Virus record (IMG/VR): IMGVR_UViG_3300038379_000636
Span: 1 to 39,559 of that record
Strand: one strand, 5' to 3'
DNA: 39,559 nucleotides
Source: a virus
The notes under the pieces are model-generated. The model did not search any database. It was given only the letters and a program-made list of their open reading frames with translations, and was not told the origin of the DNA. Positions 2,701 to 26,520 of the stretch are shown in pieces. Within the stretch, counting starts at the first letter, position 1; every line of letters begins with the position of its first letter. Position numbers and translations under genes: made by a program.

Positions 2701-4707
2701 TCATAGCGGCGTGCACGTCCCGGACTCAGCCCGAATCTGAGCGGGAAGCTTGCAGAGTGCTCCGCTGAAGTTGTCTCCGAAGGCCCCGATGCCATCGGAG
2801 TCCCACGAGCACGCCTCCTGGCACCACCAGCTCGGCGGCTCGGAGCGCGTTCGGTAAAGGGTGTTGGGGAAGTCGAGGTTCGCGTCCGAGTGAGGCCCGC
2901 TGGTGCCCTCGTTGGTGCCTGGGCAGGAGTCACCGAAGGAGGTGCCACACGAGCGATTGGAGGTGGTGCCAACCGGGTCCACGAAGTCGAACGCCTCGGA
3001 GCCGCCGTGCGTGTAGACGTTGCGCTCTGCCCAGGTGAGGTTGGCTCCAGTCCCGCCGGCACCGTCGCTGTTCAGGCTCTCGCCGTTTCTCTGAGGCGGG
3101 TCACAGCCAAGCGAGTCGGCATAGGGTGCAACCGTGAACACCCAGGAGATGTTGCCGATGATGTTGAGTTCGTCGGCTGCCCAAGGCGCGGGGCCGTCGT
3201 TGCCTTGGTAGTCCATGGTGATGCCGTTGTGGGTGCCGGGGATCGAGCTGCCGCAGTCGGTGCGCCTTGAGCGATTGCGGTAGGCCGTGATGTACTTGCC
3301 GTTGCGGCCCCACCAGAGGTCGGCAAGAAGCAGCTCGTCGTCGCAGTCGTTGCCCTCGAAGAGCGTGGCCCGCGCATAGTGGCCGTGGTTGAAGGCGCAG
3401 CGCTCACCCGTGGTGGCGTCCATGTCCACGAAGTTGTAGGCCCAGACGGTGGCCTCGGCCATCTCGATCTTCGAGCCGATCCGTGGCGCGCTGATCCAGT
3501 TGTTCTCGAACACGTTGTCGGTTGCGCCCTCCTCGAAGCTGAAGCCCTCCGTGTTGAAGGAGATCGAGGAGTCGGTGTTGGTGAGGTAGAGGCCCTGGAA
3601 CCAGCCCTGCGCTGTGTACTTGATCTTCGCCCAAGCCTCGTACACGCGGTCGATGTCCACGTTCACCATCCACACCTCTGCCGTCTCGTTGAAGACGGCA
3701 GCCGCGTAGTAGATGTTGGTGACAGAGTCGCCGCCCACGGCGATTCCAGTGTCCGTCGTGAGGCGAAGGTTCTCGACGCCGAACTTCTCCACCGGCGTCC
3801 AGGGGCGTGCGATGAACGTCACACAGCCTGCGGCGTTGTAGTCAAGGAGAAGCGGTCGGTCGAAGGTGACGTCGTTGCCGCTGATGTTGGTGATGCGGGC
3901 GTAGTGGTTGAAGGCCGGCGGGTCGGATCCACCGTTGAGCAGCTCGTCGATGTGCTCGCAGGCGAGCGCTCCTGCCATCAGGATGTTGATCCAGCCGCCG
4001 ATGGAGAAGCCCGAGACGCTGGAGAGCGTGATGGTGGTGGTGCCGGTGGTGTAGTTGGCGGTCCAGGTGGCGCTTGTTCCGCGCGCGGTTGGGGAGCAGA
4101 CGGAGATGAGCATGGCCCCGCTGTTTGCGTCACAGAGGCCCGAGTTGATGTAGGTGCGCCCGACCGTCGTCCGGCGCAGAGCCGTCCCGGTGCGAGACGC
4201 ACCCCGGATCACAAGCCTCCCGTTGCTGGTGGCGACGCCCGAGGACATCGCGTAGTTCCCGTCCGGCAGGTACAGCACGACATCGTCCGGGGCGGCATCG
4301 ACAAAGCAGTCGAGGTGTAAGCCGCTGGACGTGCTCACCAGCGTTGCGCAGGTGCCTGAGCCAACGATGGTGCGGATCGTCTCTTTCCCGCTGGAGCACG
4401 GGTTGGCCCCGCACGTCACGTCGTACTCAGGCCACGACTGCGCTGCCTCGTAAGTGCTTTCGGCGATAGCGGCGTGCTGCCAGATGGTGACGCGGCTGGA
4501 GGCCACATTGAGATCGCACAGCCCCGTTGGGCACTCTGGGGCAAACGCTCCGCCGCCTCCGCCCCCACCCCCGCTTCCTCCGCTCCCGACCAGCACGGGC
4601 GCGAATGGAATCGGAACAACGGTGGACTGCGGCGCTGGCACCACTGCCACCTGCGCAAGGGCCAAAGTGGCGAGCAGCAGCAGAATCAAGGTTGCTGCTA
4701 CTCGCAT
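2701..4707 (-). CDS. Exported Cys-rich beta-helix-like protein (putative polysaccharide depolymerase / tailspike-like), 668 aa
   Basis: Signal peptide MRVAATLILLLLATLALA|QV, then a poly-Gly linker (4549-4587). Beta-helix-like repeats are present (NVFENNWISAPRIGSKIE, SSISFNTEGFSFEEG). Many paired Cys occur (PECPTGLC, RSCGTSFGDSCPG, WWCQEACSW). RBS GAAGGAAG lies upstream. Confidence 0.75.
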   Translation of the reverse strand: MRVAATLILLLLATLALAQVAVVPAPQSTVVPIPFAPVLVGSGGSGGGGGGGGAFAPECPTGLCDLNVASSRVTIWQHAAIAESTYEAAQSWPEYDVTCGANPCSSGKETIRTIVGSGTCATLVSTSSGLHLDCFVDAAPDDVVLYLPDGNYAMSSGVATSNGRLVIRGASRTGTALRRTTVGRTYINSGLCDANSGAMLISVCSPTARGTSATWTANYTTGTTTITLSSVSGFSIGGWINILMAGALACEHIDELLNGGSDPPAFNHYARITNISGNDVTFDRPLLLDYNAAGCVTFIARPWTPVEKFGVENLRLTTDTGIAVGGDSVTNIYYAAAVFNETAEVWMVNVDIDRVYEAWAKIKYTAQGWFQGLYLTNTDSSISFNTEGFSFEEGATDNVFENNWISAPRIGSKIEMAEATVWAYNFVDMDATTGERCAFNHGHYARATLFEGNDCDDELLLADLWWGRNGKYITAYRNRSRRTDCGSSIPGTHNGITMDYQGNDGPAPWAADELNIIGNISWVFTVAPYADSLGCDPPQRNGESLNSDGAGGTGANLTWAERNVYTHGGSEAFDFVDPVGTTSNRSCGTSFGDSCPGTNEGTSGPHSDANLDFPNTLYRTRSEPPSWWCQEACSWDSDGIGAFGDNFSGALCKLPAQIRAESGTCTPL

Positions 4708-4764: not shown

Positions 4765-5172
4765 TCAAGGAAGCAGCGTCGGGGCGACTGGGGTTGGGAC
4801 GACGGGAAAGGTCAGGGACGCGAACGTCGAGGCCCCCCTGCGCCCTTGGGCGTCCTCGCACGCGAAGTCGATGGTGCGCACGTCGCTTCCCGGCAGAGCG
4901 CGCGGAGCGCTGGCCGTGGCAAGGGTGACGGTGCCGCCCGGCGTGCCCGCGTTGACGCTGAGCAGCGGCGCGCCCGAGGTCTCGCGCAGCACGAGACGCA
5001 CGCCAGGCGCGGACGTGATGTTGTCGCCCGGACACACCTGCACGCTGAGAGCCGTCGTGGCCCAGTTGCGCGAGCAGGCGGGGGCAGTGGCCGTTCCGCC
5101 TTGGCAGGGCGACTGGGCGGAGGCGGCACGGGCGAGAAGGACGAGAACGAGCAACGTGAGAATCGGTTTCAC
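4765..5172 (-). CDS. Small exported protein, 135 aa
   Basis: GTG start with GTGA overlap onto the upstream stop. Signal peptide (M)KPILTLLVLVLLARAASA|QS. The mature part has 4 Cys and is beta-rich. Confidence 0.55.
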   Translation of the reverse strand: MKPILTLLVLVLLARAASAQSPCQGGTATAPACSRNWATTALSVQVCPGDNITSAPGVRLVLRETSGAPLLSVNAGTPGGTVTLATASAPRALPGSDVRTIDFACEDAQGRRGASTFASLTFPVVPTPVAPTLLP

Positions 5173-5444
5173 GATGCGACTCCCGTGGCAGGTTGATTTT
5201 CTTGCGGTCGAGGCTTCGGCACGGGTGAGCGTGGAACCGGACTCGCCACGATGGCGTCTGGATTCCATGCCTCGAATCGCTCGGGATCGCATCGCGGAAC
5301 CACGAGCACGCGATGCGGCCCGCACACGATTGCGCACTCGGCGCGGCGCTCGTCGTGTCGCAGCAGACAAGCACCGAGGTTATCTCCCTGACTTCTGTCA
5401 CAGGAGATCGCGAGCAGCGTCGCCGCGAAAATGAACCACCTCAC
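5169..5444 (-). CDS. Putative lipoprotein, 91 aa
   Basis: GTG start with GTGA overlap onto the upstream stop. (M)RWFIFAATLLAIS|CDRS is lipobox-like. There are six Cys in the mature part and a Pro-rich C-terminus. Confidence 0.55.
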   Translation of the reverse strand: MRWFIFAATLLAISCDRSQGDNLGACLLRHDERRAECAIVCGPHRVLVVPRCDPERFEAWNPDAIVASPVPRSPVPKPRPQENQPATGVAS

Positions 5445-8400
5445 GGGTTAGCACCTCCGTTCGGGTTCTCCGTCGAAGTGAGCGGAGGGATCAACTCGAT
5501 GTATCCGCTGAGCTTGAACACGTTGTTCGCGCCGGCCGTGTCAGTTACTCCGTCGATGGCTACGCCGATCATCGACTGACACTCATCCGCCAAAACCGCT
5601 GTGTTCCCGCATGACGTTCCGTCGCCGGTGAATGCGTTGCCGAGCGGCCCAACAATCCCGAGGCGCGTCAAACTTGTCGAGACTGGGCGGCCGATGTCAT
5701 AGGCACCGAGTACAAGCGGGCCAAACACGAACTGACTCTGTGTCCACGTTGTACACTGCCCGTTCCCGTCCTCGGCGGAGCAGTACCACTCGCGTACGCG
5801 AAGGTTGATCGAGTCTTCCGGTGAAGTGCTCCAGTTGGTGTTATCCGTACGGACGAACGTCGCGCGCTTGAGGAGCATGCGCTTTCGCAGCGGCCAGGTG
5901 TTTTGTCCGCCGTTCGTGCCGATGTTCGCCGCACTACACGAAAGGGCTGCGGTCGCCGTAGCCGGAGGCCCGCCCGCGAATAAGCAGTCGCCGTTCGTCC
6001 CGGTCGTCGGGGCCGTGCTTTGATTCATACCAAAGTGCAGGCGCACCTTGTTTTCGGATTCGATGCCACCGCAGTTCGGATACTTGACTCCCGCAGAGGT
6101 TCCGCCACCTAGCTGTGAGCCATCAAGAATGATAGTGGCGCTGCTGTTCACCAGGCTTTCGGCACAGCGGAAGTAAAACTTGCCGGTCAGGTTATAGACC
6201 CCGGCGTCGTCAACCGCATCCGAGGACGCCGAGGTCGCACCGCCATCCTCCGAGGAACCGATAAAGCTATTGATGCTGACCGCATCACCGCCGCGACTGA
6301 AACCAACCGCGAGGTGAATGGCGTCCCAAATCTCGTGTCCGCGATCGTTGCCGAGGCTTCCGCCGATGAATGTGGCGGACGTGATTGCGGTCGTAGCCGG
6401 TGGCGTGCATGTCAGCGACAACGGCACCTCGCCAGGACGGCCAATTGTCTGAGCGGGTGAGTCGACCGGGTTGTTATTTCCGGGCGTCCCGCAGACACCG
6501 AAAAAGTCCGCGGCACCCGCGCGCCCGGTGCCGATGCTGACGAGATCGAAGAACATCTCGTTCGTTTGAGGGGTTGCCAGGATCCACGCCACGCCCTCCG
6601 TCCAGACGTGATCGAACTGGTACTGATTCATGCGGTGGGCAACGATGTTCCCGTAACCGTTGCCCTCAATCACCGTATCTTTGAACGCTCCGTGAGCAGC
6701 CGGCGCGTTCTGCGCAAGAGCGGTGCAAGTCCCACTCACGCAGCTCGTGTAAAACGGGAGGTCGAACGTCGCCTGATCGGCTAGCACAAGACCCATCGCG
6801 TTGGCTGAGATGTAGCCGGCCTGGAATGATCCGACGAAGTTGCCGTACTGGTGGAAAGCGATTCCCTGATTCTTGATCCGCCAGCCGTGATAGTCATTGC
6901 CCCAAGCGTAGTCGTGCTCGACACCTTTGTTGTCGTTGTCGTCGTTGTTCCCCTCGATGGTCACGCGAAAGTCCACGTGATTCGAGCGCGTCATGTTGTC
7001 GTTCCACCAGCCGACAACCGTGTAGGGCGAGTCGAAGATCGTGGCGCTGTTCAATTGATTCACGCGCTGGCGCGGCCACTCGATCGAGTAAACCGTCGTC
7101 GCATCCGGCGCGGCGTCCAGCTCGACAACCCACTCGTCGCCGGCAGCGGGTGTGCAGCCGAGCGCACTTGACCAAGTGAGCGTGCGCTCGGTGTTGGACG
7201 CGATCTGCCGAGTGGACGCTGCGGCGCAACCGCTGATCCACCGCACTCGGTAGGTCGTCGCGAGTTCGTTCGTGTGCCAAGACTTGTCGTCGTCGGTCAC
7301 GCTCGTCGTCGTTGCGGAGTCGCCCGTAGCGTCGATGATGCCGCGACTCATGCAGGCGATGGTGAGGGTGTCGGCGTCGTTCGCCGTGATCGCCACCGTC
7401 CCGCCGCTGCCGGTGCCACCCGTCGCGCGATACCGCCAGCCCTGCCACTGATTCGTTGTCCACCCAGCGCCAGAATCCTCGACGGTTCCGCAGTCTGGCA
7501 GAGTGCCGGCTCCCGTCGTTCCGCCCGCGGAGGCCGTCAGGCTGGTCAGCCCGTAGACCCCACTCCCCGTGTTCACCGTCAGTTCGCCGAAGAAGCGCAC
7601 GCGCTCGTTCAGTTGCCCGAAGTTTTGTCCGGCGAAGAAGCGGTTGCCGAACTTCGCGAAGAGCCAAGGCTCGGTTTGCCCGGTCATACTCAACGGAACG
7701 TACGAGCCTTGGTGGAAGACGTAGGTGATGTTGTGGCCGCTGGTCCAATTTGTATCGGCGTCAGCGCCCAGCGGATTAATGTGTGTGTTGGAAGCTGGAC
7801 TCACCGCGGATGAGTAAGGGAAGATACCCCAGCAGATGCGCCCCGGTCCGAAGTCGTAGCCGTCCGTGAAGAGGACGTTGGGCGAGCGCCCGCCAATGTG
7901 CGCGACGATGTCGGCATCCGCCGGAGACGCCCCGGTCGAGTCGAGCACCGGACGAGTGAGTAGGTCGCAGCGGTCGTTGTAGAGCGTGAGAGTCTGCGTG
8001 TTCGCGTTGTAAAGGATGCCGGTCTCAAGGTCGCCCACATAATCGACGGCTGACTCGGCGTAGTTCAGAGTGCCGGACGGCCTGCGCGAGCTTGCGTACC
8101 CGCCGCATCGCACCTCTACGGTGCCGCCGCTGGCCGCCGTCCCCACGTTGAAGCGCAGGAACTTGGGCCCGAGCGGCCCCACCTCCGAGCCGGTGCGCCC
8201 CGTCCCCGTGACGGTGACGATCTGCGTGCCGCTGGAGGTGGCGGTGGTGGCGGTGTCTACGAGGTAGCCCGTGAGCGAGGGGCTGCCGCCCGCGGAGACG
8301 GCGCTGAAGGAGAGGTAGGCACAAGAGCGGACGTCGGTGGCGTCTTGATCGCCGGCGTCGGTCGAGGTCCACGCGAACGTGATGTATTCCCCAGCGCGAG

Positions 8401-8488
8401 CTCGGGGCAGACTCCACGTGCCTGCAACGCTTGGGAGCGCGGCGAACCACACGAAGCACAGAGCAAGCACAGCGCGCAGCGTCCTCAT
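5441..8488 (-). CDS. Large exported Cys-rich beta-helix-like protein (tailspike/depolymerase-like), 1015 aa
   Basis: The ATG at 8488 overlaps the upstream TGA. Signal peptide MRTLRAVLALCFVWFAALPSVA|GT. The N-terminal ~140 aa are paralogous to those of 8891-11347. Beta-helix-like motifs include VIEGNGYGNIVAH and RVTIEGNNDDNDNKG. Many paired Cys are present. Confidence 0.75.
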   Translation of the reverse strand: MRTLRAVLALCFVWFAALPSVAGTWSLPRARAGEYITFAWTSTDAGDQDATDVRSCAYLSFSAVSAGGSPSLTGYLVDTATTATSSGTQIVTVTGTGRTGSEVGPLGPKFLRFNVGTAASGGTVEVRCGGYASSRRPSGTLNYAESAVDYVGDLETGILYNANTQTLTLYNDRCDLLTRPVLDSTGASPADADIVAHIGGRSPNVLFTDGYDFGPGRICWGIFPYSSAVSPASNTHINPLGADADTNWTSGHNITYVFHQGSYVPLSMTGQTEPWLFAKFGNRFFAGQNFGQLNERVRFFGELTVNTGSGVYGLTSLTASAGGTTGAGTLPDCGTVEDSGAGWTTNQWQGWRYRATGGTGSGGTVAITANDADTLTIACMSRGIIDATGDSATTTSVTDDDKSWHTNELATTYRVRWISGCAAASTRQIASNTERTLTWSSALGCTPAAGDEWVVELDAAPDATTVYSIEWPRQRVNQLNSATIFDSPYTVVGWWNDNMTRSNHVDFRVTIEGNNDDNDNKGVEHDYAWGNDYHGWRIKNQGIAFHQYGNFVGSFQAGYISANAMGLVLADQATFDLPFYTSCVSGTCTALAQNAPAAHGAFKDTVIEGNGYGNIVAHRMNQYQFDHVWTEGVAWILATPQTNEMFFDLVSIGTGRAGAADFFGVCGTPGNNNPVDSPAQTIGRPGEVPLSLTCTPPATTAITSATFIGGSLGNDRGHEIWDAIHLAVGFSRGGDAVSINSFIGSSEDGGATSASSDAVDDAGVYNLTGKFYFRCAESLVNSSATIILDGSQLGGGTSAGVKYPNCGGIESENKVRLHFGMNQSTAPTTGTNGDCLFAGGPPATATAALSCSAANIGTNGGQNTWPLRKRMLLKRATFVRTDNTNWSTSPEDSINLRVREWYCSAEDGNGQCTTWTQSQFVFGPLVLGAYDIGRPVSTSLTRLGIVGPLGNAFTGDGTSCGNTAVLADECQSMIGVAIDGVTDTAGANNVFKLSGYIELIPPLTSTENPNGGANP

Positions 8489-8886
8489 TCTCGAATCACG
8501 ACCTCCCCCGCGACCGGCGCGGGCGTGGTTTCGGTCGGCGGCGCGAGAAGCACCTGCTCCTCGATCCCCGGCTTGGGCACATACGTCTCGGGCGCCGGCG
8601 CCGTCGCGCGGCGCATGCGGTTCGCCCAGTTGATGAGCGCGACTAGCGCCGCGTCTGCTTTGGCGCGCGCGAGCTCGCGCAGCGGCGAAGGCGCTTTGTG
8701 CGGCGGCTCGTAGGGATCGAAGTGCCCGAGCGGCTGCCACTCCGCGAGGAACTGCGCCTCGGAAAGCAGCGTCCGGCGTGTCGCGCCCGCGCGCGCAACC
8801 GTCCAGCGCCCGCCCTCGTCGCGGTAGGCGTACACGTACTCGGGCGGGAGCGGAGGAGCCTCGCGACGCTTTGCTTTGACGCGCAT
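8485..8886 (-). CDS. Small partner protein S1 (133 aa), paralogue of 11344-11592
   Basis: RREAPPLPPEYVYAYRDEGGRWTVARAG..LLSEAQFLAEWQPL aligns with RRRVMPVPPPEYVYAAPTESGQWAVSSPG..LLSARELLEQFAPL of S2. The gene is translationally coupled (ATGA) to the downstream large exported protein. Confidence 0.65.
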   Translation of the reverse strand: MRVKAKRREAPPLPPEYVYAYRDEGGRWTVARAGATRRTLLSEAQFLAEWQPLGHFDPYEPPHKAPSPLRELARAKADAALVALINWANRMRRATAPAPETYVPKPGIEEQVLLAPPTETTPAPVAGEVVIRE

Positions 8887-8890
8887 CAGC

Positions 8891-11347
8891 TCAGCTGCCT
8901 CGAATCGGGCTGAACGAGAGCCCGGTGAAGTCGATGTCGACGTTTCGCTGCGTGGTTCCCGCTTCCTTCACGATGACGACCGGAATCCAGTTTGTCGTCT
9001 CCGCGCCTTCGGGCAGGTTCGCGTCGTTCGTGATCGCGGTCGTGATCGTCCAGTCGACGCCGTTGGTCGAGTAGAAGAAGTCCGCGCGCGACCAGTCGCC
9101 GTTCAGGAAGATGCCGAGCCAGATGTAGTTCGTGTCCACCGTTGGCCCGGTGGCGGTCGCACAGTCCTGCACCCCGGCGTCCTCGCCGCAGCCGCGCCAC
9201 GCAGTCGAGGCGTCCACGTCGTAGAGCCAGTAGACTCCGTCGGTTGTGTTCAGCGGCTGGGTCGCGCCGCCGTCCGAAAAGCCCGAGAGCACCTCGTAGT
9301 CCTCGGTCCCCGCCGTCGCGAGCGCCTCGACCGCGATGCGCGCAAGGTGAAAGGCGGAGCTCTCCTCCGGATTGATCCCGGTCGTCCCCGACGCGGACAG
9401 CGCAATCGCCGCGCGACCCGTCGCCGTCGTCCCCGAATCGCACTGCAGCGCCGCGACGGGGTTTTGCGTGAGGCTCGTCGCGAGATACGTGCCGACCTGG
9501 CAAGACGCGCCCGTGCCGCTCACGAGGTTCGTCAGCTCCGCCGTCGCGCCGCCGAGGAACTCGCTCCAGGAGTCGAATAGGTTCGAGAGCCTGACCCGCT
9601 CGAGCGGCCGCCAGCGCGAGGTCGTCGCGTCGTAGGAGAACGTGATCGAATCGCCCGGCTGAAGGAACCACGCAGCGCGGTGCGGGAACGTGATGCGGTT
9701 GGCCGCGCTGGAGCTCGAGCTCTCGTGCGGCAGGATGATGAGCCGCGCGCCCGCGCCGCCGGGATCGGTCGCGTTCTCGATGCGCAGCAGCCGCCCACTC
9801 GAGCCGCCCGTGACGCCGGTGATCTGCAGGGTGACGGTGGGCGTGAGGCGGAGCGTGACCGCACGCGCCGGCTGCGTTCCGTTCCATCCCGTCGGCGCGT
9901 AGTCGTTCTGCGAGGCGCTCGGGGAGTCGCTCACCACGGCGAGCGCGAAGCTCGTGAACGCCAGGTTCCACGGCAGCACGTGCGCGCTCACGTTGTTCGG
10001 CGTGCTGGCGTCTTTCTGCCACACGACGTTCGTTCCGCCGCTCGCCGCTGCGGGGGTCGTGTCGTCGAAGTCGGCGTCGGTCGCGGCCGATCCGTTCACG
10101 CTGACGTTGTCCCCACCACCGCCGGCGCCGTCGTCCGAGTTGTCGGCGAAACCGATGGGGACGCCGACAAGCTGCGACCACTCCACCTTGCCCGTCGCCT
10201 GATTCGGGAAGCCGCCGCCGATCGTGTCGTCGAGCTCCTCGAGGGCAGGCCCGAGCGCCGTCGCGGTGAAGTTGGAGTCCGCGTCGTCGAAGGGGAGCGA
10301 ATCGTCGTCGAGCACGTCGGCGCCGCCCGCGTGATGCTCGCTCGCGTGCGACTCTTCCTCCAGATCCGCGGTGACATCCGTTCCCGCGTTCTGCGTAAGG
10401 CCGTGCGTGCCGGCGGACAGGGTGAGCGGCGCGCTGACGGTGATCTCTTCCGCGACGCCGGTGCCGACCGTGGTACGCCCCAGCAGTCGAGCGGTCGACA
10501 TCGACGTCGAAATGGTGCCGCCCGACTGCGTGATCGGAGCCGTGGCCGACAGCGCGCCGTAATCGCCCGCCTCGGGGACGTCGTCATCGGCCGTACAGCC
10601 TTCCGCGGCCCCCGCGGTATCGACGCCGGCGGCCCACTGATTCGCGCCGCAGTTGCCACCGTTGGACTCGAGGGCGTCGGCCTGCCGCACCTCGAAGATC
10701 ACGTCCTCGGCGGCGACGCAGCGCGCATCGGGCGCACCCGCCCCGGTGCAGCGAATCGGGTCCGCGTCGCCCTCATTCTCGAGGTCGGGATCCACCGCGG
10801 CGACGCCCTGCACCGAGACGTTGTCCCCGCCTCCGCCGCCCGGCGTGTAGCACTCCCAGGCCGAGTCGCCGGCGTCACGGCGGATTGACTGGCCGCCCGT
10901 GCAGCCGAGATCGTCGATGATCGCCGAGGCGTTGACCGAGCCCCCTGCGCTCGCCACCGCGACATTCGAACCACAGCTGAACTCGAGGATGCTCGTTCCG
11001 GCGCCGACGGCGACGCGCTGGACGCGCAGGCGCCGAAAGCGCGGAACGAAGATTGCCTCGCCGTCCGCGGTGAACGTGGCTTCGACCTTGCTCTCGGTAC
11101 ACGCCGCGTCGCTGCACGAGTAGACCGTGGCATCGCCGCCCGCGCCGTCGGCGAAGCCGACCGAGACGGTGCGGCCGAGCGGCCCGAGCCCGCGCACGCT
11201 CGAGAAGCCCGTCGAGTCGGTGGCGTCGAACCGATACTGCGAAGCGTTGTCATTCGCGCAGATCGTCGGGTCGACGTTGACCCACTGGGCGGCGGACGCC
11301 GCAAGCGACGCAAAGCAGAGCGCGAGCGCGAGGAATGCGCGCCTCAT
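8891..11347 (-). CDS. Large exported fibre-like protein with a jelly-roll/LamG-like C-terminus, 818 aa
   Basis: The ATG at 11347 overlaps the upstream TGA. Signal peptide MRRAFLALALCFASLAASA|AQ. An internal repeat GGGGDNVSV(Q/N)G occurs twice. The C-terminus YIWLGIFLNGDWSRADFFYSTNGVDWT looks lectin/LamG-like. Confidence 0.75.
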   Translation of the reverse strand: MRRAFLALALCFASLAASAAQWVNVDPTICANDNASQYRFDATDSTGFSSVRGLGPLGRTVSVGFADGAGGDATVYSCSDAACTESKVEATFTADGEAIFVPRFRRLRVQRVAVGAGTSILEFSCGSNVAVASAGGSVNASAIIDDLGCTGGQSIRRDAGDSAWECYTPGGGGGDNVSVQGVAAVDPDLENEGDADPIRCTGAGAPDARCVAAEDVIFEVRQADALESNGGNCGANQWAAGVDTAGAAEGCTADDDVPEAGDYGALSATAPITQSGGTISTSMSTARLLGRTTVGTGVAEEITVSAPLTLSAGTHGLTQNAGTDVTADLEEESHASEHHAGGADVLDDDSLPFDDADSNFTATALGPALEELDDTIGGGFPNQATGKVEWSQLVGVPIGFADNSDDGAGGGGDNVSVNGSAATDADFDDTTPAAASGGTNVVWQKDASTPNNVSAHVLPWNLAFTSFALAVVSDSPSASQNDYAPTGWNGTQPARAVTLRLTPTVTLQITGVTGGSSGRLLRIENATDPGGAGARLIILPHESSSSSAANRITFPHRAAWFLQPGDSITFSYDATTSRWRPLERVRLSNLFDSWSEFLGGATAELTNLVSGTGASCQVGTYLATSLTQNPVAALQCDSGTTATGRAAIALSASGTTGINPEESSAFHLARIAVEALATAGTEDYEVLSGFSDGGATQPLNTTDGVYWLYDVDASTAWRGCGEDAGVQDCATATGPTVDTNYIWLGIFLNGDWSRADFFYSTNGVDWTITTAITNDANLPEGAETTNWIPVVIVKEAGTTQRNVDIDFTGLSFSPIRGS

Positions 11348-11592
11348 AGCTGCCGGTTGCTCAGCACGTGCGCCTCGGCCGCCGCCTTTTCGTCCTCGGC
11401 ACGGGCCGCCGCCTCGAGCGCTGCGCTCGGCGCGAGCGGCGCAAACTGCTCGAGGAGCTCGCGCGCCGAGAGCAGAAAGATCGGGCTGCCCGGCGACGAG
11501 ACGGCCCACTGCCCGCTCTCCGTAGGCGCGGCGTAGACGTACTCGGGCGGCGGGACGGGCATCACGCGGCGGCGCAGTTTGATTGAATCCAT
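11344..11592 (-). CDS. Small partner protein S2 (82 aa), paralogue of 8485-8886
   Basis: Shares the PPEYVYA..G.W.V core with S1. RBS GGAGG lies upstream. ATGA coupling to the downstream exported protein. Confidence 0.65.
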   Translation of the reverse strand: MDSIKLRRRVMPVPPPEYVYAAPTESGQWAVSSPGSPIFLLSARELLEQFAPLAPSAALEAAARAEDEKAAAEAHVLSNRQL

Positions 11593-11601
11593 GAGGGCCT
11601 C

Positions 11602-13407
11602 CTAGTCGTAGAAGCTCGCGTCGTGCGTCGCGTGGATGTGCCAGTCGGTTTCGCTGGTCGTCACGGCGTCGAACCGGATGTACGTGTGCTTTTGGCCCGC
11701 GGCGATCGAGCCGAGCGTGCCATTGTTGCCCGAGAGGTTGCGCGGCGTGTTGGCCGCCGCGCCCGGGTTGTAAGTCGTGATCGTCCCGACAAAGCGCATG
11801 GGGCGCGCATGCTGCCAGCCGAATGCGGTCTGATTCGAGTCGTCGCCGGTCGCGACCAAGGTGCCCGGAAAACCCGCGGTGCCAGTCGCCAGCGTCGCGA
11901 CGCTCGTCGCGTAGTCCGCCGTCTTGTCGAACCCGACCTGGCACGCGGCGAGCGTTGCGTCGAAGTCGTCCACGCGCAGGCTCGAGGAGATGTCGCCGAA
12001 CGCGAGCCACGCATCGGTGACACGGAACTCGATCGTGGCCGCGTTCATCGCGAGCAGGTCCACGTAGATCTCGACCCCGTTCTGCGCGTCGGTCATCGCC
12101 CCGAGGTCGAACGTGTGCGTGAAGGCCACCTCGTTGCCTGCCGAGAGCGCACCGGGGAACGCTTGCGTCAGCCGGTTGGTCATGTTCGCCGCGGCGAACT
12201 TCGTCGCGTTGGCGTGGTCCGGCCCTGTGTTCGAGGTCGAGCGCACGTGGAAGTTGGGCGTGATCGAGCCGGTCGTGCCCGAGTGCCGCACCTTGATCCC
12301 GAACGTCACGTTCTTGGCGCCGAGTAGCGCCCCAAGCGCGCGCACTTTGCCGCGCCCAAGGCGCACGCCGAGGCGCATGTTCGTGATCCCGGCGGCGCCG
12401 GTGAAGGCGAGGCCCATCGGCGAGAGGGCCCCCGAGTGAAGGCCGGACGAGACGCGCGTCCAGGTCACGGTGCCCCCGGTCGGGAACACGAACCACTCGT
12501 CGCAGATGTAGGCGTCCACGCCGCTCGCGACGGTGCCCGTCGCCGTCTCGCTCGGGAAGCGCTGCGAGACGAGGAAGGATCCATTCACGAGCTCGTTCTC
12601 GCCCACGATGGCCGCAGCGATCGCGCTCGCAATCTGCGTCGGGACCGGCGTTCCGACCGCTTCGTAGGCGTGCGTGCGCGCGCCGGCGTCGAGGTTGTTC
12701 AGGACCGCGAGCAGCTGGAACTGGATCTTCTGCAGCTGCACGAGCAGGGTCGCGGAGTCCGCGAGCGCGAGCGGGTTCGTCTCGACCTGCTGCTCGGCTG
12801 TGTTGAGGCCCTTGATCTTGCCCAGCGTCAGCGGGTCGGTCGCGTCGAACTCGGCGTCCCCGATCGAGTTCGCCGGTGGAATCGCCGAGGGGCCCGAAGC
12901 GGTCGCCAAGTTGGCAAGCGCCCAGGCGCGCGTCACGGCGTCCTGTCCGGAAGTCGGGTCGGCGAGGTTCTTGATCCGGTTGCTGCGTGCGTCGAAGGCC
13001 CCCGCGCCATCGGTATCGGTTTCGCCAAGGCGCGGCGCGCGCTCGACGAGGTCGCGCGTGCGCTGATTCTGATGCACGGCGCGGTCGAGCTGCTCCTCGA
13101 GCGCCTCGGCCGGGAGCGACGTGCCTCCGACGAGGTCGACCTGCTGCTTGAGCTCGGGGTCGTGAATGATGTGCAGCGTGACGCCCGTCGCCGGCGCCGT
13201 GACCATCGTGACCGTTCCGCCCGCCGGCGCGTCCTCGCCGGCCACGCTGTAGTGCGTGCCGAGCGTCTTCGTCGTCTCGGTTCCGTCGGCGGCGCGCTCG
13301 ATGACGAGGAGCGCTGCCGCGTCGCGGAACATCCAGGGCACGGCGAAGGCGACCGTCGCGCCGTTGCCGGCATAGGACACTCGGACCTGCTCGCTCGTGA
13401 CCGCCAT
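11602..13407 (-). CDS. Tail fibre protein (podovirus type), 601 aa
   Basis: The N-terminus VRVSYAGNGATVAFAVPWMF...LLVIER..DGTET..LGTHYSV..GTVTMV.AP..GV.L.I..D..L.QQVDL, followed by FDARSNRIKNLADPTSGQDAVTRAW, matches recalled fibre/tailspike N-terminal signatures. It lies directly after the internal virion proteins, as in T7. Confidence 0.75.
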   Translation of the reverse strand: MAVTSEQVRVSYAGNGATVAFAVPWMFRDAAALLVIERAADGTETTKTLGTHYSVAGEDAPAGGTVTMVTAPATGVTLHIIHDPELKQQVDLVGGTSLPAEALEEQLDRAVHQNQRTRDLVERAPRLGETDTDGAGAFDARSNRIKNLADPTSGQDAVTRAWALANLATASGPSAIPPANSIGDAEFDATDPLTLGKIKGLNTAEQQVETNPLALADSATLLVQLQKIQFQLLAVLNNLDAGARTHAYEAVGTPVPTQIASAIAAAIVGENELVNGSFLVSQRFPSETATGTVASGVDAYICDEWFVFPTGGTVTWTRVSSGLHSGALSPMGLAFTGAAGITNMRLGVRLGRGKVRALGALLGAKNVTFGIKVRHSGTTGSITPNFHVRSTSNTGPDHANATKFAAANMTNRLTQAFPGALSAGNEVAFTHTFDLGAMTDAQNGVEIYVDLLAMNAATIEFRVTDAWLAFGDISSSLRVDDFDATLAACQVGFDKTADYATSVATLATGTAGFPGTLVATGDDSNQTAFGWQHARPMRFVGTITTYNPGAAANTPRNLSGNNGTLGSIAAGQKHTYIRFDAVTTSETDWHIHATHDASFYD

Positions 13408-16400
13408 CTATCGGCTCCTGCCGCTGCGCGAGCGCGCGGCCGTTTCGTCATCCTCTACCACACCCTCCGCCGTTTGCAGCGGCCAGTCCGCGGGCACGCC
13501 CTTGGCGAGCGCGGTCGAACGCAGCGCCGCCCAGAAGAGGTCGCCCCAGTCATCCTCATCGAGCGCCTCGTCGACCGCGCGGCCGAGGTTCGCGGCCTCC
13601 TTCCAGTAGACCCCGAGCCAGCCCGGCGCCTGCACGCGGCCGCTCGAGTAGGTGCTCCACAGATCGCGCACGCCGGGCACGAGGCCGAAGAGCGAGCCGA
13701 GCACTTCCTTGCCGAGCTTCTCGGGGATCTCGTCCTCGTCCGCAGGCTCCGGGCCGCCCGGGAACGCCGCGTAGATGAGCTGCCGCAGCCCAAAGCCGAG
13801 GATCGCCGGGAAGGTGACCGCGGTCAGCACCGCGGCGGCGGTCGCCGGGACCGAGTGGTGCCTGCGCCACGAGCCGCTGACTTGATTCAGCTGCGTGTTG
13901 AGGTAGGTCCCCATGAACGTGAAGATCTCGGCGAGCGTGCCGCCGTGGGTGAGCAGGCGCGCCTGCGAGACAAGCGAGCCAGACCCCTGCGAGAGCTTCA
14001 CCGTCGAGTCGGCCACCTCGGCCGCGTCCCGCGCCGAGCGGCCTTGATCGCGCGCGAGCCGCTCGCTCGCGAGCCAGACGGGGAGGTCGACCGCAAACAG
14101 CTGCACGCCCGCAATCGCACGCGCCCCGACGTGCTGCACGAAGGAGAGCGCGCCGGCGCGGCCCGCGACGCGGCGCTCGATCTCCTTGATCTCGCGGTCA
14201 AACGTCTCCGTCCGGGCGCGCAGCATCGCCGAGCGCGCCATCACCTCGCGGTAGGTCTTCTGCGCCCGCGCGAACGAGCCTTGCCCGAGCGCGTCGAAGA
14301 GCCCGCGCGCGAGGTAGCGCGCTGCGACCAGGTGGCGCGTTCCGGTGCCGACGGTGCGGCCCTCGACGTTCTCGACGAGCTGCTGCAGGCCGTTGGCGAG
14401 GCCCGTCGGCTGGACCGCGAGCGTGGTTGCGCGCGCGAGCAGCACGAACGAGCCCGCGCGCGCGCGCATCCCGCGCGCGAGCGCCTCGATCTCGCGCAGG
14501 CCCCCCGCGTGGCCGACGTCGCCGCTCATCGCCTGGAGCCACGGGAGCCAGAACTGCGAGACGCTAAACTCGTGGCCGAGCTGCGCGCGAATTTCTTCCT
14601 GGAGTTCGCGGCCCTGCAGCGTCTTGTAGGCGTCGAGGATCGGCTCGCGGAACGAGAGGTCGAGCGACACGTCCTCGAGGTGATCGAGCAGCATCGCGAA
14701 GGCGTCGAGCCGCAGCGCCCGGCTGCGCAGCATGGTGCGCGAGCGCGTGAAGTAGTGCGTCGGCTCGACCTTGCCGACGCCCGTGCCCTCGCGCCGGAAG
14801 ACTTCGGCGGCTTCGCGCAGCGCCGCCGCGTCCGAGCGCGTCGGGTCGTAGAGCGCCGGGAAGTAGCCGCCCGTCAGCTTCACCCCGCCCGCCTCGAACG
14901 GGACCGGCTCGAGCGGCGTCGGCGCAATGCCCGAGAGTCGGCGCTCGTGCTCGAACACCTCGGCGCGCATGCCCTCGAGCAGCGCCCACACGCGGTTGGC
15001 GAACTCGAAGTCTTCGGCGTCGAGGTGGTCGGCGAGAATGCCCGCGAGCGCGGCGCGCTGATCGGCGAGCTCCATGCCCTCGAACCAGTCGTACCCGCCC
15101 GTCAGCTTCATCAGGCTCGAGTCGTTGCCCATGTGCAGCAAGATGCCGAGGAGCGTCCGGCGCGTGAGCCACGCGGGCGCGCCGGCGCCCGCGCGCGCGA
15201 AGCGATTGCGCAGCCGCGTCTCGGGCAGGATCTCGTCGTAGCGACTGCGACCGCGCGAGGTGATGAAGCGGTCGGCGAGCGCGCGCACGGGCGTCACGTG
15301 GCTGCGCATCCGGTCGGCGTGCTGGCCTTCCGCCGCGACGAACGGGTGCACGAGCACTTGGAAGAGCATCGAGGTCGTGTCGCTGCGCACGAGCGCAGAG
15401 AGCAGCGCCTCGACGCCCGTCACCGCGGCCTGCGCACGGCGCCCAAGCGCCCAGAAGTGATCGCCGAGCTCCTCGGCGCTGCGCGTCGTGACCGCACGCG
15501 CGAACGATCCCAGCGTCGCCGGCACGGCAACCAGCCGCGGCGAGCGCGTCGCCGGCCGAAGGACTCCGCGGCGAATCTCGGCCGCCATCGTGTTCCGCAC
15601 TGTCTCGCGCTCGATCACTTCGCCCTGCACGGTCGTCTCGTACTCGCGGCGCGCGGCGTTCGCGATCGAGTCGAGGGTCTGCACGAAGCCCTGCCACTCT
15701 TCGAAGGTGAGCTCGCGGTAGTTCGTGCGCGCACCCTCGAGCATCCAGCGCGGGACCTCTTGCCAGATCGCCGAGTCGGCCTCGAGCGGGAGGTCGGGCA
15801 CCGCGAGCGCGTCGCCGGCCGCGAGTCGCTGGCGAAGCCACTCGATGAACGGGGTCCGGCGTCGCAGGATCTCGGCGCCCGACAGCACTCGCAGCGAGAC
15901 GGCCTCGAGCCGCGAGTCGATCATCTCGAGGTAGCCGTGGCCCGCGAGGCCGATCTTCTTGCGCACGGCCGGCGAGCGTTCGTAGCGCCGCGCCTTGGTG
16001 AGTCCGCTGCGCACGGACTCCTGCGCCTCATGCGCGTACTGCTCGACAAGCGTATGCAGGAGCTCGCGCCGCAGCTCGGCCGAGACGCGCGCGAAGTCGC
16101 CGGCGCGCGCCGCCCGCCACGCTTCCCGGCGAGCGGCCCGTGCCGTCTCCCGGTGAATGCGCGGGCCGCGCTCGAGCTCGGACAGTGTCTTGCCCGCGAC
16201 CATGCGGCGCGCCATGTCCTCGACCACGCGCCGCGGGGAGGGCTCTGACCCGCCCTTGGCGTGCGCGATCGCTTCCTCGTCGAGGAGGAACTGAATCCGC
16301 GCCTCGCCGGTCACGGCCTGCGCGGCCAATTCCTCAAGCACCCCCGGACCGAGCTCGCCGAGCGCCGCGAGCCGCTCGCGGGCGCGCGCCTCGGCGACGC

Positions 16401-19400
16401 GCTCGCGCGAGCCCGCCTCGACCGAGCCCGCGGCGAGGAGCGCACGCACCAGGTCCGCGCCCCGGTCGAACCCGAACTGCTCTGCGACCGTGTCGGGATG
16501 GACGCCGTCCTTCGAGGCGGTGAGCCACGAGCGCGCGCCCGTTGGAACCGCCTGGATGGCCCGGCCCGCGGGCGTGTCCGCGCCAAAGAGCTCGAGCATC
16601 GCCGCGCGTGAGAGCTTGACGCGCGGCACGTCCGCCGGCGTCTCGCGACCGAGCAGCTGCCCCGTCCGCAGGTAGGCGTCGGCCTGCCACACCGGCTCGC
16701 GCGCCATCTCGGCATCGACCTCGGCGCGGATCTCGACAAGGGCCTCGCGCTCGCGCCGCTTGCGTTCGCGCTCGAGCTTCTCGAAGAGCCCGCGCCGCTT
16801 GGCCACTTCCTGGAGCTGCGCGCGATCGAGCCGCTCGCGCGCCGATGCCTGCGAGCGCGCGATCGACGCCTCGAGCGTTCGGCGCTCGGCCTCGGTCAAC
16901 TGCTCGCGCGCGAAGACGCTCGCCGTCACGTCCTCGCGCGTCTCGGCGGCGATCGCGTCGTCGGTTGCGAGGAGCCGATCGAACACGGCGCGCACGTCCT
17001 CGGGCAGCGCGGCCTCGCCGGTGAGATCGCGCAGCGAGCGGTAGAGCGAGACGAGCCACTCGCGCATGCGCGCAAAGGCGGCGCGCAGATCCGCGCTCGG
17101 CGCGCGCCCTTCGCGCAGATAGCCGAGGAAGGCGTCCGCGAGCCACTCTTTGCCGGCCGTGTCGAGCGGCGCAAGCGGCCCGTCTGCGGGCCTCCCGGTC
17201 GCGCGCAGCGCGGCGCGCACCAGCGTCTCCGCGTCCTTCGCGACCCACTCGGGCGCGTCCGGCGACTCGGCCTCGTCGAGCAGGCGCAGCGTGTAGTAGT
17301 GGCCGAGCTCGTGCAGGCCGGTCGAGAGGTCGGCGGAGCGCGCAAAACGAATGAGCGCGTCGCGCATGTCGGCGGAGAACGTGATCGAGCCGCGTTCGGT
17401 GCCGCCACGTTCTTGGCTCCGGCGCTGGGAGAAGGTCTGCGCTCCGGATTCGCGGAATCCCTCGAAGTCCTCGCCCCTGGCGGAGAATCCAGGCGCGACC
17501 GCGTCGAGAAAGCTGACCCCAAATGCGCGGCCGAATCCTCCGAGGTTCTTCGTGAGCGCGCGGTCGATCGCCGCGCGGTCCGGGAACACGGCGATCATCG
17601 AGCCAGCGTTCGAGTCGCTGACTGCGCGCGCAATCGCGCCGATGCCGCGCTGCGGGTCGCCCGTGCGGAGCCGCCGCATCTCGTCTGGCGACATCGAGAG
17701 CCAAGCCGCCGGCACGTACCGCGTGTCGAGGAGCAGGAGCCCCGTCTCCCCGGGCACCCGCTCATTCGCCCACGCGAGCGCTTCCTCCGGGCTCCCAACC
17801 CGGCCACCGCGCTCGCGCACCGAAGCCGCCACTCGCCGCAAGCGCCGCTCGAGGATGGCGACCACGCGATCGCGCCGCTTGGGCGGGATCCGGAACTCCC
17901 GCTCCGTCTCCACGTTCGAGGCGCGCCCGCCCGGTGCCACGACCAGGCTCCCGGCGAGCTCGATCCCAGAGCCGCGCAGCACGCCGGCGAGGCGATCGGT
18001 CACCGCCTGATCCTCGACGCTGCGGCCCGTGTTGCCGCTCGGGTGATTGTGGACGACCCACACCTTCGCCGCGTTCGGCACCGCGAAGCTCGCCGCGAGC
18101 GTCTCGATCGGATGCACCAGCGAGCTATCGCGCAGCCCGCGCGAGACGCGCACCACGCGCAGCACATCGCCGGCCGCGTCCGTCGTGACCGCGAGAAACT
18201 GTTCCTGCGCGTCCTTGCGGATCGGCGCGACGAGGTGAGCGACCTCTTCGTCGGTGGTGACGCGCGTGAGCCCGGTCGCGAGCGTGCCCGTGCGCACGAG
18301 CGCGACGCGCGGCCCGCGCGGACCGCTTACCTTCGGGGCCGGTGCCGCTTCGGGCGCAGCGTCGAAGAGATCGACCTGTACCGGGGCGCGCGGTCCACCT
18401 TCAGAAACGGCCGAGCGGCCTCGTTCGTCAGCATCGGCCAGCCGATAGACCGCGCCGCCTTCGGCGACGACCTTCGCTTCGCGGCGCGGAGTGAGCGTGG
18501 CATCGGTACCTCCTTCCGGCTCCTCGACCTGAAAGTACTCGTCGGCGAAGCGCTGCGCCTCGAACGCGAGCAGAGCGCGCGCAGCCGCCTCGTCGTCGAG
18601 CTGCGTGAGGTCGACGCCTGCTTCCCCGAGCAGCGCGCCGAGCTCGCCGCGCGCACCTTCGATCTCGGCGAGCTGCGCGATCTCGGCGGCCGTCCGCGTC
18701 GGCGAGCCCGCAAGCTCGGCGCGGATCGCCTCGAGCACGGCCCCGCGGTCGGCGTAGTCCGTGCCCGGCTGCGCGGGCAGGTACTCGAGCACATCGTGCT
18801 CGCTGCGAACAAGCGTGTCGGCATCGCCGACGCTGCGCGCCGTGCGGCTGAAGAGCCCGGGAAAGCGCTTCGGCGTCACGTCCATCGCGCGCAGCTCGCC
18901 CGCGAGCACGCTGTCCGGGTGCACGCCGCCGAGTTTCTTGAGCAGGTCAAGCACGGGGTACTGCGGGAGCTTCGGGAGCTTGCCGCCTCGCAGGTCCGCG
19001 ATGGCCGCGCGCAGCTCGGCGAGCCGGCGCGCGGCGGTCACGTCCTGCACCGGAGCGTCCGCGAGATCCGGGCGAGCGAGCGCGGTACGGGGTGCCGCGC
19101 CCACAAAGCGCAGCGCCGGCTCGTCCGCGATCGCCTCTTCGACCGAGATCCCGAGGCGCGCCGCGCGCGTGAGCGTGGCCGCGCGGATCACCGCAACGAG
19201 CGTGTCGGCCGCGCGGCGGTCGTAGGGCGAGTGCTCCGCGCCGACGATCGCATCGCGCAGGCGCCGGAAGTGTCCGGCCACGGCCGGCGAAACGGGCGGC
19301 GGAGTTTCGACGCCGACCGTCGCGACCGGCGACGCCGCGGCGTCGCGGAGCAGCTGCGCCTCCTCGGTCTCGGTGAGCGTGCGCGGATCGAGCCGCGCCG

Positions 19401-25681: not shown

Positions 25682-25942
25682 CTACACCACCCCAAGGAGC
25701 GCCAGCCGACGGCGGAGCACGTGCTGCTCGAGGATCCAGCAGGCCGAGGCATCGTCCACATTGACGCACTGCACGGTCGCCGTGCCCTCGCGGTCGATGG
25801 CGATGGCGATGAGTCCGCTGGTCTCTTGTCGTTCGACGCCGGCGACGAGCTCGCCAAGAACCTGGGCGAGCTCGCGGCGCACGCGCGGCGACTCCGCGAG
25901 GGAACGCACCAGTCGAACCGATTTCGCGCCCGCCGCGCTCAC
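25682..25942 (-). CDS. Hypothetical protein, 86 aa
   Basis: The GTG at 25942 overlaps the upstream TGA (GTGA). G/C is high at the third codon position. No motif recognised. Confidence 0.45.
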   Translation of the reverse strand: MSAAGAKSVRLVRSLAESPRVRRELAQVLGELVAGVERQETSGLIAIAIDREGTATVQCVNVDDASACWILEQHVLRRRLALLGVV

Positions 25943-26520
25943 GCCCGATAACGAGCCCCGACCCACTCGGAGTCGGAGTCGTCCTCAGTCACCTCCTCCT
26001 CGAGCCCGTCGACCGCGCGGGCCGCGTCGAGCGCCGCCTGGTAGGCCGCCTCGGCGTCGGCGCGCTTGCCGCGATCCTGCGTGAGCGGCATGGCGAGCTC
26101 CATTGCAAGCCGCGCCGAGAGCGCGGCGCGCAGCATCGGGTCGTAGGTGTTCGCGTCGGTCTGCTGGAACACGTACCGCACGTTGAGGGGCGCGTCCCAA
26201 TCCGTCAGGATCAAGCGCCCCTCGATCGTCCAGCCCACCTTGGCCGCGAAGTCCTCCTCGTTCACGGCCAGGATGCGCAGGGCGTCGGCCGGCCATGCGT
26301 ACTCGAACGCCCACTCGAACGCCGGCGTGGTCGCGAGCGCGGCGAGCGCGGTGCGCTTGATGGCGCCGTTCCACGGATGCTCGCGCAGCACCGCGTCGCG
26401 GAGCTCGGGCCAGATGGCTTTGGCGAGCCGCGCCGCTTTGACCGGATCGTCGAGCGAAGTGATCGGCGACTCGCCGAGCGCGATCAGGCCGCGGTTCACG
26501 ATGCCGGTTTCAGACGCCAC
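25939..26520 (-). CDS. Tail tubular protein A / adaptor-like protein (T7 gp11 type), 193 aa
   Basis: IVNRGLIALGESPITSLDDPVKAARLAKAIWPELRDAVLREHPWNGA parallels the T7 gp11 N-terminus as I recall it (VNDILASIGEPPVSTLEGD...[20 protein letters not shown]). Confidence 0.7.
   Translation of the reverse strand: MASETGIVNRGLIALGESPITSLDDPVKAARLAKAIWPELRDAVLREHPWNGAIKRTALAALATTPAFEWAFEYAWPADALRILAVNEEDFAAKVGWTIEGRLILTDWDAPLNVRYVFQQTDANTYDPMLRAALSARLAMELAMPLTQDRGKRADAEAAYQAALDAARAVDGLEEEVTEDDSDSEWVGARYRA

Follow-up and report, generated by a model that had tools for sequence, protein, structure and literature searches.

Small Proteins Encoded Upstream of Large Signal-Peptide, Fibre-Like Proteins in the Late Operon of a T7-Like Podophage

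Introduction

Why would a lytic podophage encode, directly behind its tail-fibre gene, large proteins that have the look of receptor-binding fibres and yet begin with export signals, and why would each of them be preceded by a small gene of one and the same family? This question is raised by the IMG/VR virus record IMGVR_UViG_3300038379_000636, the whole stretch of which (39,559 nucleotides or 39.6 kb, ~70% G+C; hereafter the window) makes up a late operon from a T7-like podophage, with the late genes on the minus strand. Two copies of a two-gene module are found there, each composed of a small gene (S1 or S2) and the large gene that follows it (L1 or L2), and an earlier note, made from the sequence alone, had taken them for a duplicated cassette in which a conserved small partner and a conserved N-terminal domain accompany exchangeable bodies. 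The analysis described here upholds the module and the exchange of the bodies, divides the N-terminal domains (N-domains) into distinct classes, and tentatively suggests an exported fibre with a chaperone of its own, the confidence being much higher for the architecture and the shuffling than for what S does and why L would be exported.

The S Family and Its Constant Neighbour

On comparison of their sequences, S1 and S2 are homologous. BLASTP aligns them at an E-value (E) of 1e-5, or 3e-8 when unmasked, and a hidden Markov model (HMM) made from five S1-type sequences only detects S2 at E 9.6e-9 and the four remaining members of the S2 type at E 7e-18 to 2e-5 (Z = 1e6 for both), by which the similarity noticed by eye in the earlier note is placed beyond chance. 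The homologous part covers the first ~55-68 residues, and its core, proposed before as a shared motif and recovered as such in the alignment, consists of a basic start, the segments P-x-P-P-P-E-Y/F-V-Y-A and G-x-W-x-V, and the closing L-S-x-x-x-L/F-L-x-x-W/F-x-P-L. The reading frames of both S and both L genes stand on the minus strand at the coordinates first assigned to them (Table 1), and their third-position GC of 0.78-0.89 (0.84-0.87 in the S genes) is the excess typical of the real genes of this genome.

The S family is small: ~11 members were found among ~15 billion proteins, 5.8 billion clusters being searched by word index and 1.84 billion representatives scanned in full by HMMER. Every member lies in a podophage contig of high GC, and these contigs are closely related to one another. 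A long form of 126-133 amino acids (aa), with one protein of 167 aa in which the core is duplicated, and a short form of 80-110 aa are distinguished, and the N-terminal ~55 residues are the most conserved (33-67% identity, with conservative substitutions). No family of Pfam, PHROG, NCBIfam or PADLOC was matched by S1 or S2 at E<=0.1, and PDB sequence searches with S1, S2, L1 and L2 gave nothing. The AlphaFold2 model of S1, made from an alignment of 10 sequences (mean predicted local distance difference test score, pLDDT, 72), folds the core into three short strands plus one helix; residues 68-95 form a long helix predicted with confidence, and the tail is disordered. A fold search with this model returned only partial SH3-like overlaps, the best E being 2.3 in the PDB and 0.17 in a viral library. 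S has neither a signal peptide nor a hydrophobic or membrane segment; the table of hydropathy and charge agrees with the earlier note on the missing signal peptide. Two features of the family are recorded apart from this: nearly every S has a run of prolines (PPLPP, PVPPP, PPPPP) just before EY(V/F)Y, at residues ~10-16, and the tails of the long S proteins hold a second, weaker copy of the motif (APAPETYVP). Proline runs of this kind are ribosome-pausing motifs that depend on EF-P.

The genomic contexts of S are 11 in number, two in the window, two in contig L004 and one each in contigs L001, L002, L003, L009, L011, L013 and L019. In every one of them the gene after S overlaps the stop codon of S and encodes a textbook signal peptide, then a Trp within 1-4 residues. 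The placing of a small partner before a large exported-type protein, pointed out before in the window, thus extends to eight other contigs, and no S homologue lacking an adjacent signal-peptide gene was found among the 11 contexts. The S-L pair is duplicated as a unit both in the window and in L004, and the short S form precedes L genes of the L2 type as well as of the L1 type.

Table 1. Positions of the two S-L pairs, their parts and the neighbouring genes in the window (ORF, open reading frame).
Feature	Positions	Strand	Basis or remark
S2 gene, 82 aa, short S form, without signal peptide	11344-11592	-	ORF, translation, third-position GC 0.87, family matches
S2 conserved core, residues 4-53: IKLRRRVMPVPPPEYVYA..GQWAV..LLSARELLEQFAPL	11434-11583	-	Alignments; found by the HMM of the other S group alone
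S2 proline run	11545-11565	-	
S2/L2 stop/start overlap, ATGA	11344-11347	-	No Shine-Dalgarno precedes
L2 gene, 818 aa, fibre-like	8891-11347	-	Homologues found
L2 signal peptide MRRAFLALALCFASLAASAAQ, then Trp	11285-11347	-	Hydropathy and charge against controls
L2-type N-domain, residues 22-128, 4 Cys	10964-11284	-	70-74% identical in L001, L004, L019
L2 mosaic shaft, residues 140-460	9968-10930	-	Modules of 35-90 aa
L2 C-terminal body, residues 461-818	8894-9967	-	
S1 gene, 133 aa, long S form: core, long helix, disordered tail	8485-8886	-	ORF; AlphaFold2 pLDDT 72
S1 conserved core, residues 2-53	8728-8883	-	Alignments, HMM
S1 proline run	8839-8859	-	
L1 Shine-Dalgarno GGGGGAGG	8502-8509	-	Inside the S1 codons for the conserved C-terminal AGEV
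S1/L1 stop/start overlap, ATGA	8485-8488	-	
L1 gene, 1015 aa from signal-peptide Met	5441-8488	-	
L1 signal peptide MRTLRAVLALCFVWFAALPSVAG, then TW	8420-8488	-	
L1-type N-domain, residues 24-132, one Cys pair	8093-8419	-	On at least 7 proteins with unrelated bodies
L1 body	5441-8092	-	
p201, small signal-peptide protein, 4 Cys	~4765-5172	-	
p668, signal-peptide protein, 20 Cys, poly-Gly run	2701-4707	-	
Canonical 601-aa tail fibre, T7 gp17-type N-terminal domain	11602-13407	-	Pfam PF03906 E 1e-8; PHROG tail families up to 6e-28
Giant of 2702 aa, one of the internal proteins	13408-21516	-	
Tail tube B	23426-25681	-	
Tail tube A	25939-26520	-	
Major capsid protein	27444-28322	-	
Protease/scaffold	29111-30025	-	
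Portal	30410-32050	-	
Terminase	34173-35747	-	

The L Proteins

The description of L1 and L2 as signal-peptide proteins was borne out, since both have typical Sec features that are absent from the phage control proteins. In the L-type and neighbouring proteins (16 of 16), 1-3 Lys or Arg residues are followed by a hydrophobic core, an end rich in Ala, Gly and Ser, and a Trp, and the maximal hydropathy over 10 residues, starting at residue 3-10, is 2.1-3.5, while it is at most 1.6 in the six control proteins. The mature N-termini start with Trp or (T/S/G/R)W and no lipobox is present.

The first ~140 residues of L1 and L2 had been regarded in the earlier note as paralogous, and this part of the proposal did not stand. 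BLASTP aligns only the signal peptides (E 0.46), as does the hhalign comparison of the L1-type and L2-type profiles (3 versus 2 sequences), and nothing significant was obtained, either globally or locally, with the signal peptides removed (8 versus 3 sequences). The segment formerly aligned is recovered co-linear (88-108 versus 87-108) but with P 0.36, and the GPLG motif, although present in both proteins as noted, occupies non-equivalent positions (~104 in L1 and ~55 in L2) and is unconserved in the relatives. By sequence, the N-domains of L1 and L2 are two distinct classes, with a third class in L003. The seven L1-type N-domains match pairwise at E 1e-8 to 1e-65, except for one pair at only E 1e-3; in the L2-type N-domain strands are predicted with low confidence only. 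The two types are alike in length, in the Trp just after the predicted cleavage, and in closing with a strand that contains Cys, after which a Gly/Ser/Ala linker comes next; a common fold is conceivable, though the sequence does not demonstrate it. Neither L1 nor L2 matched anything in Pfam, PHROG, NCBIfam or PADLOC, nor did nine related L-type or neighbouring proteins in Pfam, and when proteins were searched with a profile of the L1-type N-domain, one fragment alone came up, the search having probably been swamped by candidates of low complexity.

Behind the N-domains, the bodies are exchanged. The six full-length bodies carried by L1-type N-domains have no mutual match at E<1e-3, and one of the L1-type bodies shares with the body of L2 a module of 85 residues at 73% identity. 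Because this module sits behind both N-domain classes, N-domains and bodies are shuffled in a cassette-like manner, so that of the cassette proposed before, the conserved N-module with exchangeable bodies is retained, while a single N-domain common to L1 and L2 and an obligatory S are not. The shaft of L2 is a mosaic in itself, the modules of which recur at 55-80% identity and in different orders in ~25 other proteins; all nine of those inspected begin with signal peptides, and two of the shaft-sharing proteins lie in unrelated phage contigs. An uncultured podovirus has a protein, annotated as a tail fibre, in which a domain matches residues 477-583 of L2; this fibre begins with a T7-type N-terminus and lacks a signal peptide, which argues that the L bodies consist of the material of tail fibres. 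None of the databases searched yielded a relative of the L1 body; the G+C of this body is 0.59-0.65 and its third-position GC 0.78, against a third-position GC of 0.87-0.92 in the neighbouring genes, which is consistent with a recently imported module.

The cysteines point to the same compartment as the signal peptides. L1, L2 and the two signal-peptide proteins encoded beyond them, p201 and p668, contain 1.8-3.0 Cys per 100 residues, compared with 0-1.2 in the cytoplasmic virion proteins, and the counts in the mature chains are all even (20 in L1, 14 in L2, 4 in p201 and 20 in p668), a pattern that suggests disulfide-bonded exported proteins. Exactly two Cys are found in the L1-type N-domain in 8 of 8 complete sequences, in alignment columns 18 and 125 or 41 and 126; such a shift of the pair is as expected for a migrated disulfide, although it probably goes back to one event in evolution. 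Taken together, the signal peptides, the even Cys counts, the co-varying Cys pair and the missing lipobox favour genuine export, into a compartment that is oxidising.

Proposed Roles of L and S

The reading that we prefer, as a tentative one that may well prove wrong, is that L is an exported envelope fibre and S its co-expressed chaperone. L would be exported by Sec and folded oxidatively, with the formation of disulfides, in the infected cell's periplasm or envelope. Its N-domain, a putative beta-rich address domain of ~110 residues, would tether it to some component of the envelope, while the variable body, placed after the Gly/Ser/Ala linker, would attach to a glycan or receptor of the surface or modify it; receptors might in this way be masked or destroyed, which would keep progeny and superinfecting phages from being trapped. 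S, presumably cytoplasmic and translated just before L from the same messenger RNA, would be a dedicated holding or targeting chaperone that binds the nascent N-terminus of L (the signal peptide and the start of the N-domain) and keeps a large, trimer-prone protein export-competent. Since one S type serves different N-domain classes, its target would be a shared feature such as the signal-peptide region. We infer this course of events for L, and every aspect of what S does, from the features described above.

Several points weigh against this reading. Sec substrates as large as L normally need no private chaperone, and the motive of a lytic podophage for exporting fibre-like proteins is speculative. 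The monomer model of L2, with a mean pLDDT of 48 and a best fold match at E 0.26, which is noise, is too poor to bear out a fibre fold. The T7-type fibre of the window has no similarity to L1, L2 or p668, and the idea of self-receptor masking by a decoy is therefore weakened. The adjacency in 11 of 11 contexts does not represent 11 independent events, because all S genes come from one narrow lineage. L genes with the same N-domains but without S occur in L001, L011, L006 and L020, and S is therefore not required in cis.

These S-less genes have Shine-Dalgarno sequences of their own. In L001 the S-less gene, of the L2 type, sits on such a sequence directly after the fibre. In L011, where two L1-type genes stand in tandem, the second is preceded (6661-6700) by a near-exact 24-nucleotide copy of the S 3' end that includes the Shine-Dalgarno sequence and the start ATGCTGCGTAG; as read from this copy, an L gene and its ribosome-binding site have been tandemly duplicated there without S. 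L006 and L020 belong to a lower-GC sub-lineage in which L1-type genes stand without S in the short stretches recovered, and the ORFs upstream of L in them matched none of the window proteins tested, the giant internal protein included. At least one S is present in every larger contig with L genes, and its action in trans is therefore possible.

Alternative Explanations

Unlikely, though the foremost of the alternatives, is the explanation that L1 and L2 serve as receptor-binding proteins of the virion and dock on the conserved T7-type fibre in the style of KP32, K1-5 and SP6, with S as an assembly factor or as a mask of the signal-peptide-like N-terminus that keeps L in the cytoplasm. The position of the L genes immediately after the tail-fibre gene would suit it, and so would the domain that L2 has in common with a genuine T7-type tail fibre and the presence, in the unrelated contig L015, of signal-peptide fibre-like genes inside the structural module. 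Moreover, the 601-aa fibre is 57-71% identical from end to end, its C-terminal part included, in L001, L004 and L011, while the L bodies are unrelated, which is the pattern expected if L sets the host range. However, tailed-phage virions assemble in the cytoplasm, and canonical signal peptides, elevated and even Cys counts, the small non-fibre signal-peptide proteins of the same block and the S-less L genes all speak against such docking. No match to Phage_T7_tail (PF03906) or to another known adaptor domain was found in L1 or L2, while the adjacent fibre has one, and because PF03906 is absent L is not a virion fibre of the T7 gp17 type. In podophages with an anchor-branch system of the KP32 type or an adaptor of the K1-5/SP6 type, the secondary receptor-binding proteins are cytoplasmic components of the virion and are not known to have signal peptides. 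The window is like these systems in having a gp17-type fibre, then variable genes with a short conserved N-terminal attachment module; it is unlike them in that the conserved N-module of L follows a cleavable-type signal peptide and has a Cys pair. The fibre, considered by itself, is unusually conserved for a receptor-binding protein that stands beside hypervariable neighbours.

Rather unlikely is a purely translational role, in which S is an upstream open reading frame for termination and reinitiation, its 3' end serves as the Shine-Dalgarno sequence of L, and the peptide itself does little or nothing, or works in cis alone, for example through polyproline pausing. The junctions lend themselves to this. 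The ATGA overlaps reported in the earlier note were confirmed at both S-L junctions of the window, and across the contexts the overlap is ATGA or GTGA in 10 of 11 and 11 nucleotides long in the eleventh, that of L011. The C-terminal AGEVIE of the long S form is encoded as GGGGGAGGTGATCGA-ATGA at the S 3' ends of L001, L002, L003, L004, L009 and L013, and its codons (GCG GGG GAG GTG ATC GAA TGA) provide GGAGGTGATC, a complement of the 16S rRNA 3' end, and thus an extended Shine-Dalgarno sequence that ends 5 nucleotides before the ATG of L. Because of this, part of the C-terminal conservation of S is conservation of nucleotides, that is, of the ribosome-binding site of L. S2 has a strong Shine-Dalgarno sequence (taggagg) 6 nucleotides upstream, just past the fibre stop codon; L2 of the window has none and therefore probably depends on translational coupling to S2. 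A PPP or PPxP run near the N-terminus of every S would also fit. Against an S peptide of little function stand its most conserved part, the N-terminal ~55 residues, which is far from the junction and detectable by HMM across the two groups, the third-position GC of the S genes, and the small folded domain with a confident helix in the AlphaFold2 model; the S-less L genes, moreover, simply have Shine-Dalgarno sequences of their own. A programmed frameshift fusing S to L was also considered; no canonical slippery heptamer was seen by eye at the junctions.

It is improbable that S is a conventional assembly chaperone encoded downstream of its client, which would then be the preceding gene, the T7-type fibre or L2. 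All five S2-type genes and one S1-type gene do come straight after the T7-type fibre and have a strong Shine-Dalgarno sequence 6-7 nucleotides before the ATG, and S1 of the window follows the fibre-like L2. However, the upstream neighbours of the 11 S genes are mixed (the T7-type fibre in six cases, an L2 body in two, a signal-peptide protein of 220 aa in one and unrelated proteins in two), and because they vary while the downstream gene is always L, it is the downstream gene that is the constant partner of S. The overlap, too, is always with the gene downstream, the fibre of L001 has no S behind it, and no tail-fibre assembly family of Pfam or PHROG is matched.

Similarly small is the chance that the adjacency of S and L is merely the inherited gene order of one narrow lineage and carries no functional meaning. 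That the ~11 members of S all stem from closely related high-GC podophage contigs agrees with it, as do the L1-type genes without S in the short stretches recovered from the L006/L020 sub-lineage; but S stays beside L while the bodies, the N-domain class and the upstream neighbour change, and the pair has been duplicated as a unit, in the window and in L004. A cassette of a polymorphic toxin with its immunity protein was likewise considered and rejected, as the small partner is upstream and conserved and no toxin or defence profile is matched. Very doubtful, finally, is a route of host-range fibres through the periplasm, by which exported, disulfide-bonded L would dock on the T7-type fibre at or after lysis, or S would switch L between the cell surface and the virion; to our knowledge, an extracytoplasmic step in tailed-phage assembly has not been described before.

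Comparison with Known Systems

With L regarded as an exported envelope fibre, the closest described architecture is that of the MAT (mosaic adhesive trimer) fibres of Bdellovibrio bacteriovorus, the likeness being one of layout. These fibres have a signal peptide, a beta-rich domain that is conserved and ~130 aa long, a trimeric mosaic fibre and swappable tips; their N-domain, for which no PDB homologue exists, is believed to keep the fibre attached to the cell, and the tips are related to phage fibres (PMC10769870). L resembles them (PMC10769870) in the signal peptide, the beta-rich N-domain of ~110-130 residues, the modules of phage-fibre type and the swappable distal part, a conserved end being used for retention in MAT, and putatively in L, and the opposite end varied for targets. 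The differences are that the MAT fibres are a predatory bacterium's own surface fibres, whereas L is a product of a podophage late operon, that no small upstream partner is described for the MAT genes, and that L is without an S74 chaperone-protease domain. A link between phage fibres and the MAT adhesins of predatory bacteria is possible, and, if L is exported, fibre modules would be used on the surface of the infected cell and not on the virion only, possibly for receptor masking, destruction or adhesion.

Other phage proteins are known to act at the envelope. Llp of T5, Cor of T1 and phi80, and Lom and Bor of lambda are envelope-acting signal-peptide proteins encoded near tail-fibre genes, and some of them block the phage's own receptor. 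L is like them in joining a signal peptide with a position next to a tail-fibre gene, but these proteins are small lipoproteins or beta-barrels, unlike the fibre-like, modular L proteins of 800-1000 aa, and L is not a lipoprotein of the Llp or Cor type because a lipobox Cys is missing.

The best analogy for the putative role of S is offered by the class I chaperones of type III secretion and by NapD and TorD, which are small cytosolic proteins encoded beside their substrates and acting on the N-terminus or signal peptide. S would share with them the small size, the cytosolic location and the gene adjacent to the substrate; no sequence or fold similarity exists, however, and the signal of L is of the Sec type, not of the Tat or type III type. 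The assembly chaperones of tail fibres (Tfa of lambda and Mu, gp38 and gp57A of T4) are also small, lie beside fibre genes, usually downstream, and are needed for folding. S is like them in size and in its place beside a gene of fibre type, and unlike them in standing upstream of L, in lacking a Pfam or PHROG match and in having a putative client that is apparently exported. As an unannotated family with a clear genetic partner, S could reveal how very large trimer-forming proteins stay Sec-competent.

Genomic Setting and Related Contigs

By Pfam and PHROG matches, the late genes of the window are ordered as portal, capsid, tail tubes A and B and internal proteins, then the T7-type fibre. The closest cultured phages are only ~30-36% identical in tail tube B. 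Directly 3' of the fibre gene follow S2, L2, S1 and L1, then the signal-peptide proteins p201 and p668, of which p668 shows a local match (E 2e-9, far under the cut-off of the family) to the hyaluronate endo-lyase family BT3328, in its beta-helix part. Judged by the predicted signals, ~22% of the window probably codes for exported proteins, and both S-L copies lie in this block behind the tail-fibre gene. For annotation, the genes after the tail fibre in such phages should not be taken for tail fibres automatically.

The lineage is rare in all collections searched. The S-L module has no DNA match in known phages, and a metagenome scan found no further loci. Scans of IMG/VR with S, both N-domain types and the fibre as queries gave nothing beyond one contig already known, and a scan of genomes gave only one contig of a metagenome-assembled genome, also known already. 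The label attached to the contig of this relative, Spirochaetales, may have arisen as an artefact of binning.

The findings point to a class of phage proteins that resemble receptor-binding fibres yet bear export signals and paired cysteines, and similar signal-peptide fibre-like genes are met in unrelated phage contigs as well. One of these contigs (L014, 57% GC; locus 10001-14690) encodes a protein of 1373 aa with a signal peptide and a Beta_helix domain, and L015 (38% GC, SU10-type portal) has five signal-peptide proteins within its structural module. The occurrence of signal peptides on fibre-like proteins of phages may be more widespread, although no direct precedent for them on phage fibres or tailspikes was found in the literature. 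Comparison by eye also suggests that a small signal-peptide protein 3' of the large signal-peptide fibre is conserved between L006 (3955-4569) and L014 (14100-14690), the common motifs being VDEDVDSPGTDRC / IDEDPDSPDGAWC and FDFPSP / VDFTTP in contigs that are otherwise different; exported fibres may have in such a protein a partner of a second kind.

Among the remaining genes of the window, the giant internal-virion-type protein of 2702 aa contains a RadC/JAB-like segment at residues 1086-1203 (phrog_10276), and its homologue in L001, with 4091 aa, has Pfam matches to RadC and HATPase_c.

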